A stretch of DNA of 64,000 bases, from assembly GCF_024298765.1 (NCBI RefSeq), contig NZ_CP101211.1. The stretch is one strand, 5' to 3'. Positions 21,001-24,000 of the stretch are shown piece after piece. Made by a program: the position numbers. How positions within the stretch are numbered: the first letter of the stretch is position 1; the number at the start of each line of letters is the position of its first letter. Source of the DNA: Escherichia coli. Its GTDB lineage: Bacteria; Pseudomonadota; Gammaproteobacteria; Enterobacterales; Enterobacteriaceae.

Positions 21001-24000
21001 ATTCCTCTACGTATGTTTACATCGATGATACGGTATTTCGAGCTATGATTTTTTTACATAAAGGCGTCATTTTGGATTCTAAGCCTAAGGACCTTTGTTA
21101 CTTACTGGTAAAGGCTCCAGTCCTGGCTCTCAAACAGTTCATACTTAGGATGCAAAGTAACTTTCTGATTATAATTGGCTCCTTTATAAACATGTTTACT
21201 TCATGAATACAGGATATTTAACGGTAATGTATTTAAAATGGAAGGATGCTGAAATAACATAGAGTTACGTATTTTTTTAATAGTGTTGATGTTGATAATA
21301 GGTCACCATTAATGTATAAAGTTAATATCTAATATGGTCCTATTAATAAAAGAGAGTTTTTATGGCTGAACTATTAAAATCTGAAAGTCCTGTTTCACAA
21401 TCATTGCAGGATATCACTGAAGCTTTAAAAATCGTTGTCGATGATGGAAGTAAAGCTGCAAAACTGGTTTGTCTTAATGAAAGAAACGAATTAGTTCCCT
21501 TGCTCACACAAAATAGTTTTGTTCCAGATTTCCGTGTTCGCCATGAGGGTCTCAATCCTTTTAACTATCTTATTGATGGGCTGGAAAGGTTTTCGCATCA
21601 CAGCGAATCTAGTAACTCACTGGAATCGACTGATGTATCTCACCAATACGATGAAATTAGCCGGTTAAATGTTCACCATGCACTTCATGCTTCTGGTTTA
21701 GTTCCTCAGGATGTTCACCTCTTTGTTACTTTACCTCTTAGCCAGTTCTATACTGCTTTAGGGGAAACGAATATTGAAAATATTCAGAGAAAAAAAGATA
21801 ACCTGATGAAACCAGTTGAGCGTTATCTTGACGGTAAACGCTATTCTTTCAACGTTTTGTCTGTGACTGTTTTCCCTGAATCTTTACCAGCTGTGACCCG
21901 GGCAGATGAAATTGAGGATATTGCTTCATTTGAATCAAGTTTGGTAATTGATCTTGGTGGTACTACTCTTGATGTTGCAAGTATTACTGGGCAATTAGAA
22001 CAGATTTCGAAAGTAAAAGGGAAGGTGCGAATAAGCAGGTCATTTCTTCCCAAGCTGACTCGCTGATTAAAATTTCGCGGATCTGGGCCGATTTTTTTCC
22101 CGCAAACACATCGAATCAGCCTATTTAGGCTATTTTTTCCACCATTTCTGGCGTTATTTCCGGTTTTTACTGAGATCTCTCCCACTGACGTATCATTTGG
22201 TCCACCCGAAACAGGTTGGCCAGGGTGAATAACATCGCCAGTTGGTTATCGTTTTTCAGCAGCCCCTTGTATCTGGCTTTCACGAAGCCGAACTGCCGCT
22301 TGATGATGCGAAACGGGTGCTCTACCTTGGCACGGATGCTGGCTTTCATGTATTCGATGTTGATGGCCGTTTTGTTCTTGCGCGGATGCTGCTTCAAGGT
22401 TTTTACCTTGCCGGGACGCTCGGCGATCAGCCAGTCCACATCCACCTCGGCCAGCTCCTCGCGCTGTGGCGCTCCTTGGTAGCCGGCATCGGCTGAGACA
22501 AATTGCTCCTCTCCATGAAGCAGATTACCCAGCTGATTGAGGTCATGCTCGTTGGCCGCGGTGGTGACCAGGCTGTGGGTCAGGCCACTCTTGGCATCGA
22601 CACCAATGTGGGCCTTCATGCCAAAGTGCCACTGATTGCCTTTCTTGGTCTGATGCATCTCCGGATCGCGTTGCTGCTCTTTGTTCTTGGTAGAGCTGGG
22701 TGCCTCAATGATGGTGGCATCCACCAAAGTGCCTTGGGTCATCATGACGCCTGCTTCGGCCAGCCAGCGATTGATGGTCTTGAACAATTGACGGGCCAGT
22801 TGATGCTGCTCGAGCAGGTGGCGGAAATTCATGATGGTGGTGCGATCCGGCAGGGCGCTATCCAGGGATAATCGGGCAAACAGGCGCATGGAGGCGATTT
22901 CGTACAGGGCATCTTCCATGGCACCGTCGCTCAGGTTGTACCAATGCTGCATGCAGTGAATACGCAGCATGGTCTCCAGCGGATAGGGCCGTCGGCCATT
23001 GCCCGCCTTGGGATAAAACGGCTCGATGACAGCGGTCATATTCTGCCATGGCAGAATCTGCTCCATGCGGGAGAGGAAAATCTCTTTTCGGGTCTGACGG
23101 CGCTTAGTGCTGAATTCACTATCGGCGAAGGTGAGTTGATGGCTCATGATGTCCCTCTGGGATGCGCTCCGGATGAATATGATGATCTCATATCAGGAAC
23201 TTGTTCGCACCTTCCCTAAGAATTATCTTAATAAATCTGGTACTTAATTATTATTTTACTTATAAAGTCTCTGTGCTTTAATGGTTATGTAAGGATTTTT
23301 TGATACCCTTATACCCGATGGACCTAAGGTCACTGACAACGATGTTCATGTAGAATCTTCGTTTCTGTAATCCCTTTTGTCCTTGTCCCAAATGTTTGAT
23401 TATTATAATAAAGGCTGATCGAATGCTATCTCGCAACTCACTAATACATGGTTTACGCCGAGACCAGTTAATCGGAGTTCTGACTATTTCAGAGTTTCCG
23501 GTAGTTATGGTAGAAAGCCACTTCATTCAGTCTGAGGTTATGGGAATAAAACCCGTAATTTTTAATATTGATGAGCTTCTTGTTTCTATATCCCCAATTT
23601 CCTCTCTTAAGTTCGATTGGGAGTGGGCCCCAGTTGATACAATACTCATTGAAGTTATCATTCCACCTGTAGAGTCAGACCTTGTAAGTGCAGAAAATGA
23701 CTTCCTCCGTGATTCTGGTATCGGCCATATCCAGTGCGAGCCTGGCGGAGCATCAATACGACGTACAGTTACCTTCGTTGGTGGAATAACCGCTGATAAC
23801 TTACTGTATCAGTTGAGGCTTATGTGCGTAAGTGCGTTAAAACTTTTAGGAGAGGAACTGGGGGATGAAGTCTAAGATTAGATATGTTTTATCTGGTTTT
23901 GTTGTGATATGTGCATTTGCTGGAGTTTATAAAATCCTAAACAATGTTCCGGTTAAACCTGACCTTTTGGACTTCACTGGAAACACATTTAAAAAGACAT

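Follow-up and report, generated by a model that had tools for sequence, protein, structure and literature searches.

Truncation of parM and loss of parR at one end of ISKpn26 in a widespread lineage of IncHI2 plasmids

The Escherichia coli contig NZ_CP101211.1 (assembly GCF_024298765.1) contains, in the 64,000-nucleotide stretch that we have analyzed as a whole (hereafter, the window), the conjugative backbone of a resistance-carrying IncHI2 lineage, as seen from comparison with related plasmids. In this backbone the actin-type (type II) partition module Par2, composed of parM and parR, ends abruptly against a complete copy of ISKpn26, an insertion sequence (IS) of the IS5 family. We propose that two successive events account for this arrangement, namely the insertion of ISKpn26 beside an intact module and a later 1,230-bp deletion anchored at one end of the element, and that the resulting dead type II module descends from one ancestral event that has since spread. 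We put the probability of this reading at about 0.9.

The deletion and its progenitor

The history of the locus can be read from plasmid pAPEC-O1-R (NC_009838.1), in which a parM gene of 345 aa is followed by a 212-aa gene, a 200-bp spacer, CTAA, ISKpn26 in the same orientation as in the window, a second CTAA, and htdA. The two plasmids do not differ at a single base across 4,019 bp on the left side of the deletion and 3,328 bp on its right side, and what is missing from the window is exactly 1,230 bp, a segment that starts at parM codon 220 and stops directly in front of the IS (4248-5477 of the pAPEC-O1-R locus). With it went codons 221-345 of parM, all of the 212-aa parR, and the spacer including the left copy of CTAA. 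The comparison shows that ISKpn26 transposed into a CTAA in the parR-htdA spacer, duplicating this tetranucleotide, and that a deletion starting from the IS end that faces parMR then took the 1,230 bp, leaving the element and its junction on the htdA side untouched. The breakpoint is fixed within one base, since parM and the IS terminus have one G in common: the G at 22020 can be assigned to either, and the new junction reads AAAG or AAGG. The 4-bp YTAR target-site duplication of the family is lacking around the element in the window and present around the same IS copy in the progenitor.

The initial annotation, made from the sequence alone, had pointed to the mismatched flanks of the element (AAAG and CTAA) and to the missing target-site duplication, and both flanks read as it stated. 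Rather than a simple insertion, it had favored an adjacent deletion mediated by the IS or recombination between IS copies, together with the loss of a second partition module. These proposals hold, with a progenitor whose layout differs only by the 1,230-bp deletion and with the 3' part of parM and parR both lying within the missing segment. The alignment to intact ParMR loci that it suggested as a check places the deletion end-point at parM codon 220 and the IS end.

What is left of parM reads into the IS and forms a chimeric open reading frame (ORF), in which the IS-encoded tail comprises 14 codons (KVRISRSFLPKLTR). The first 220 residues of its product are identical (220/220) to the 345-aa IncHI2 ParM, and the product matches the full length of the Pfam domain StbA_N, the N-terminal domain of ParM (E 5.6e-67, residues 22-183). 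From the C-terminal domain, only the first 33 of the 159 Pfam positions are present, and the two-domain fold is thus incomplete. Homology to ParM is further supported by the full-length relative, since the intact IncHI2 protein aligns over residues 3-297 (E 2.7e-43) with R1 ParM (PDB 1MWK), which belongs to the paradigm type II system ParMRC (1MWK/1MWM). In this alignment, the truncation maps to about residue 193 of the 320 in R1 ParM: the remnant keeps the phosphate-binding motifs DDGS and DLGGTTLD, whereas the nucleotide-binding motif LVGGGSYL and most of domain II of the actin fold are lost with the 125 C-terminal residues that align with R1 ParM. The early description of a ParM/StbA-like frame cut off within the IS5 terminal repeat was thus correct, and only its sizes need amending: the ParM part runs to 220 residues, followed by the 14 IS codons, and not to about 219, and the full-length protein has 345 aa and not about 320.

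Searches with tblastn and blastn revealed no continuation of ParM downstream or elsewhere in the 64-kb window and no parR gene at the locus or across the window (best tblastn E of about 1), in agreement with what had been noticed at first sight downstream of the IS. The identity of the lost 212-aa protein as ParR rests on its position, its similarity to IncHI1, and its naming in the literature. The gene adjoins the 3' end of parM in relatives and is called parR by a submitter and in papers on IncHI2 plasmids (PMC5034289, PMC10076803). Residues 11-117 of its product share about 60% identity with the product of the same-position gene of IncHI1, conservation being limited to the N-terminal ~110 residues, and the protein matches no Pfam or NCBIfam family. 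In an Enterobacter/Citrobacter-type subset of IncHI2 plasmids (NZ_CP136048.1, NZ_MH829594.1), tblastn aligns the 212-aa protein only as far as residue 163, which suggests a variant or disrupted C-terminus of the ParR-position protein in records of this type.

The intergenic region upstream of parM is preserved and now stands as an orphan. Between 20990 and 21370 it contains only short imperfect inverted and direct repeats (for instance, the inverted pair 21296-21311 / 21330-21345), its conservation with the IncHI1 upstream region is patchy, and no R1-like parC iterons were identified in this interval. With only an N-terminal fragment of ParM, no ParR adaptor, and an orphan upstream region, the type II module is to be regarded as dead, and Par2 would be non-functional in this plasmid. 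Judging from the actin fold of ParM, the fragment should be unable to bind nucleotide or to polymerize. It is reasonable to infer, as the initial annotation did for ParAB plus the repeat array, that segregation would depend on ParA/ParB together with the other maintenance functions of the plasmid. In RefSeq, the chimeric ORF appears as an ordinary coding sequence (WP_077249218.1, 'ParM domain-containing protein') and not as a pseudogene, so that surveys of gene content would count Par2 as present; in an inventory of plasmid maintenance genes, this ORF is best handled as a pseudogene.

As for the element, RefSeq names its product as an IS5-like element ISKpn26 family transposase, and the 16-bp terminal inverted repeats agree at 15 of their 16 positions, both these repeats and the length being those of the IS5 family. 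The window's copy carries three clustered differences (22266, 22323, and 22327; IS positions 247, 304, and 308) from the allele of the progenitor and of typical deletion carriers. As these carriers retain the progenitor allele, the three changes are private to the window and later than the deletion. Another deletion carrier, NZ_CP085623.1, shares only the first of them and has three others, and the clustering of the differences points to gene conversion with further IS5-family elements in the host, rather than to point mutation. A hybrid element made from two different recombining copies was considered and dropped, since typical deletion carriers (three loci) hold the progenitor allele.

Table 1. 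Features of the partition region, with positions in the window
Feature	Position	Strand	Remarks
Tandem repeat array, 249 bp, upstream of parA	12124-15594		Tandem Repeats Finder, 9.8 + 3.5 copies, period 249
parA, 417 aa	16002-17255	+	ORF without internal stops; RefSeq annotation
parB, 334 aa	17252-18256	+	ORF without internal stops; RefSeq annotation
parM upstream intergenic region (promoter and candidate parC centromere)	20999-21361	+	Identical to pAPEC-O1-R; kept, orphaned
parM remnant, the first 220 of the 345 codons of an actin-like ATPase gene	21362-22019	+	Base 22020 ambiguous between parM and IS
Chimeric ORF, 234 aa (220 ParM + 14 IS-encoded residues)	21362-22066	+	Stop codon within the IS
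AAAG, 4 bp left of the IS at the new junction	22016-22019		Outside the IS5 YTAR rule
Complete ISKpn26 (IS5 family), 1,196 bp	22020-23215	-	Sole copy in the window
Terminal inverted repeat, transposase-3' end	22020-22035		GGAAGGTGCGAATAAG; end anchoring the deletion
IS5-family transposase, 326 aa	22167-23147	-	NCBIfam NF033581, 366.8 bits (cut-off 140)
Terminal inverted repeat, transposase-5' end	23200-23215		Reverse complement GGAAGGTGCGAACAAG; junction as in progenitor
CTAA, remaining copy of the original 4-bp target-site duplication	23216-23219		Progenitor has CTAA on both sides
htdA (IncHI transfer repressor)	23423-23875	+	First gene past the IS, left untouched by the deletion; annotation of co-linear records

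Distribution among IncHI2 plasmids

The three successive states of the locus are all found among the 72,556 plasmid records of PLSDB, in which the flanks of the deletion match about 1,125 IncHI2 records. The empty site, without the IS, is present in about 967 of them. The CTAA/IS junction together with intact parM and parR occurs in 24 records (for example, NC_009838.1, NZ_CP027411.1, and NZ_AP027416.1). The parM/IS junction of the window, searched with a 600-bp probe and a required coverage of at least 80%, is found in 69 records, or about 68 after removal of the false positive CP082622.1. Among the junction matches listed, 59 of 60 are unbroken alignments of 600/600, the remaining one being CP082622.1, which matches in two pieces. 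The left flank is present in 1,123 records and any match to the deleted segment in 1,058, and these counts suggest that most deletion carriers hold no second copy of that segment.

The junction is carried by plasmids of Salmonella, E. coli, Enterobacter, Klebsiella, Shigella, and E. albertii, from sources as different as humans, poultry, cattle, pigs, a gull, a cat, fish, vegetables, and wastewater. Among these carriers is pR18.0877_278k (NZ_CP037959.1), the plasmid of a Salmonella Goldcoast outbreak (PMC9927516), which belongs to the deleted lineage and differs from the window by one substitution across the first 21.4 kb and by three inside the IS. As an identical junction at a non-canonical site is found in about 68 plasmids, a single ancestral event, later spread by conjugation and clonal expansion, best explains the distribution. 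Full-text literature searches returned no description of this ISKpn26-anchored parM-parR deletion lineage, the sequences of which are public.

Other events have affected the same region. The plasmid of S. Kentucky (CP082622.1, locus 2519-2844) carries an independent deletion of 526 bp from the same ISKpn26 end, corresponding to 4952-5477 of the pAPEC-O1-R locus and beginning at a canonical CTAG; its parM is intact and the 212-aa gene at the parR position is cut after residue ~104. In mcr-9-type IncHI2 plasmids, IS903B lies between parR and htdA (PMC10076803). This element, also of the IS5 family, occupies the same spacer as ISKpn26 in the window, at a different point (the final codons of parR) and in another sub-lineage, and its carriers, unlike the window, mostly still have parMR intact. 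In the case of Citrobacter koseri pMTY13189_IncHI2 (NZ_AP025641.1, locus 2940-4000), IS903B anchors a deletion of ~4 kb, as estimated from the junction sequences, which reaches back into a 173-aa gene (window ~19100) and has removed a 278-aa gene, the metallophosphoesterase gene, parM, and parR. This is a second independent and complete loss of Par2.

Two further arrangements were observed at the same place. In the mcr-1 IncHI2 plasmid NZ_OP950834.1 (4030-5200), ISApl1 is found just 3' of parR, and the place of htdA is taken by unrelated backbone genes (for an HNH endonuclease and hipA), a sign that the same spacer has been rearranged, and in NZ_OQ078085.1 an annotated IS1 underlies a two-piece match to parR. 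The events involving ISKpn26, IS903B, ISApl1, and IS1 make the parR-htdA region an IS hotspot.

Routes to the deletion

The most likely route of the deletion would be a transposase-driven event at the IS end facing parMR. It might have occurred in one step, by intramolecular strand transfer of this end into nearby DNA (adjacent deletion), or through a second copy that hopped locally and then recombined with the resident copy in direct orientation, the product being identical in both cases. In E. coli, IS5 shows a strong preference for YTAR targets and local hopping, and deletions anchored at a resident copy are its dominant class of associated deletion; in mutation-accumulation lines, 72 of the 98 deletions associated with an IS run from a copy already present to a new position (PMC5009759). 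The deletions of IS5 and IS1 described there by Lee et al. (2016) (E+N type) share with the window the retention of one junction, a single intact IS, the location of the other end at a novel site 1-3 kb away, and the lack of a matching target-site duplication. What would be expected of an adjacent deletion is largely found here: a progenitor exists, the right IS junction is unchanged, the deletion runs exactly up to the opposite IS terminus, and the element itself is whole.

Several points weigh against the two-event history that we propose. The IS5 events of Lee et al. use YTAR and the sister deletion of CP082622.1 starts at such a site, whereas the novel junction of the window (AAAG or AAGG) does not conform to it, despite the 37 YTAR sites that the intact sequence offers from the start of parM up to the IS, one of which lies as near as 21 bp upstream of the breakpoint. 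The joining was thus atypical by either route, or the joint was made in another way after cleavage at the IS end. On the functional side, we infer that partition by Par2 is lost and that the plasmid relies on ParAB; ParM/ParR might in principle be provided in trans by another replicon in the same cell, and the direct search for a second copy of parM/parR covered the 64-kb window.

The variant of this history in which a copy of ISKpn26 in direct orientation first settled in parM, ~1.2 kb away, and was then lost with the intervening DNA by homologous recombination is possible, and we give it the smaller share. It has precedent, since the authors of the mutation-accumulation study credit the 72 of 98 deletions at pre-existing copies to local hopping plus recombination and counted 19 IS5 insertions less than 1 kb from a resident copy where 1.5 were expected (PMC5009759). 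An ordinary insertion would, however, be expected at YTAR, which AAAG is not. The junction of the intermediate (IS end-AAAG-parM continuation) was found in none of the 72,556 plasmid records at a coverage of at least 80%, which is weak evidence, and the IS allele of typical carriers is that of the progenitor and bears no hybrid signature, although recombination between identical copies would leave none.

A transposase-independent, illegitimate deletion that ended at the IS by chance, through replication slippage or end-joining at a 1-bp microhomology, could account for the non-canonical AAAG and for the G shared by parM and the IS terminus. A homology of one base is, however, no more than expected by chance, the IS is complete, and the stop at its terminus to the base, together with the second, independent deletion in CP082622.1 that shares this terminus and has its other end at a canonical CTAG, makes an accident of this kind very unlikely. 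A simple insertion into parM is hardly credible, as the window lacks 1,230 bp that its relatives have and its right junction is that of the progenitor spacer and not of parM, and misassembly by repeat collapse, for which IS copies are a classic cause, is excluded by the same junction in at least 59 complete plasmids that were sequenced independently, in different laboratories and from different hosts and countries, the window moreover holding one IS copy only.

Par2 loss and the double partition of IncHI plasmids

The module that would be left for partition is the type I module Par1, which lies ~3 kb upstream of the parM remnant and is intact in both of its genes. ParA and ParB of the window match the ParA_partition (E 7e-25) and ParB (E 7e-13) families, in both cases under the equivalog cut-offs, so that the assignment stands at family level. 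Upstream of parA, the 4.4-kb non-coding gap that begins after a TraC-family gene is largely taken up by about 13 repeat copies (76-86% matches); this unusually long array of 3.5 kb, likewise intact, is presumably a candidate centromere or incompatibility region of Par1.

IncHI2 plasmids rank among the principal vehicles of multidrug resistance (mcr-1, mcr-9, blaCTX-M, ramAp) in Salmonella, E. coli, and Enterobacter. Par2 has been lost from them independently more than once, and a Par2-null lineage is widespread in nature. Taken as a field experiment, this variant suggests that a plasmid with ParAB can persist and spread without the actin-type module, and the lineage offers near-isogenic material on why IncH plasmids retain two partition systems. 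That the loss of Par2 has been favored in this lineage, and not just tolerated, seems unlikely to us; this idea draws on the deletion form (~68 records) outnumbering the IS-bearing progenitor (24) and on at least two further, independent IS-anchored deletions that damaged or removed Par2 (CP082622.1 and AP025641.1). If true, ParMR would be costly or conditionally useless in IncHI2, and its loss might ease partition incompatibility with co-resident ParMRC plasmids or change the expression of Tra2/htdA; alternatively, a derepressed N-terminal ParM fragment might itself have some activity.

Both modules of R27 are reportedly functional, Par1 being the major stability determinant according to Lawley and Taylor (2003). 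The presence of 'two functional partition systems' is confirmed elsewhere (PMC13245405), and parAB and parMR are the recognized partition modules of IncHI2, parAB having been put forward as part of the minimal IncHI2 determinants (PMC5034289). The presumed dependence of the deleted plasmid on Par1 fits both this view of parAB and the role of Par1 in R27. The components of the present case, namely the double partition locus of IncH, ISKpn26, and IS-anchored deletions, were all already known, and the event is of an ordinary kind of IS-mediated loss.

R1 ParR is a short ribbon-helix-helix protein, and the 212-aa protein of IncHI, with its lack of family matches, differs from it. In IncHI plasmids such as R27 and R478, Par2 adjoins Par1 within the Tra2 region, and the gene order metallophosphoesterase, parM, parR, htdA, rsp is common to IncHI2 and IncHI1. 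The locus of the window occupies the same position; compared with the intact IncHI Par2, its ParM is without residues 221-345 and its parR is gone.

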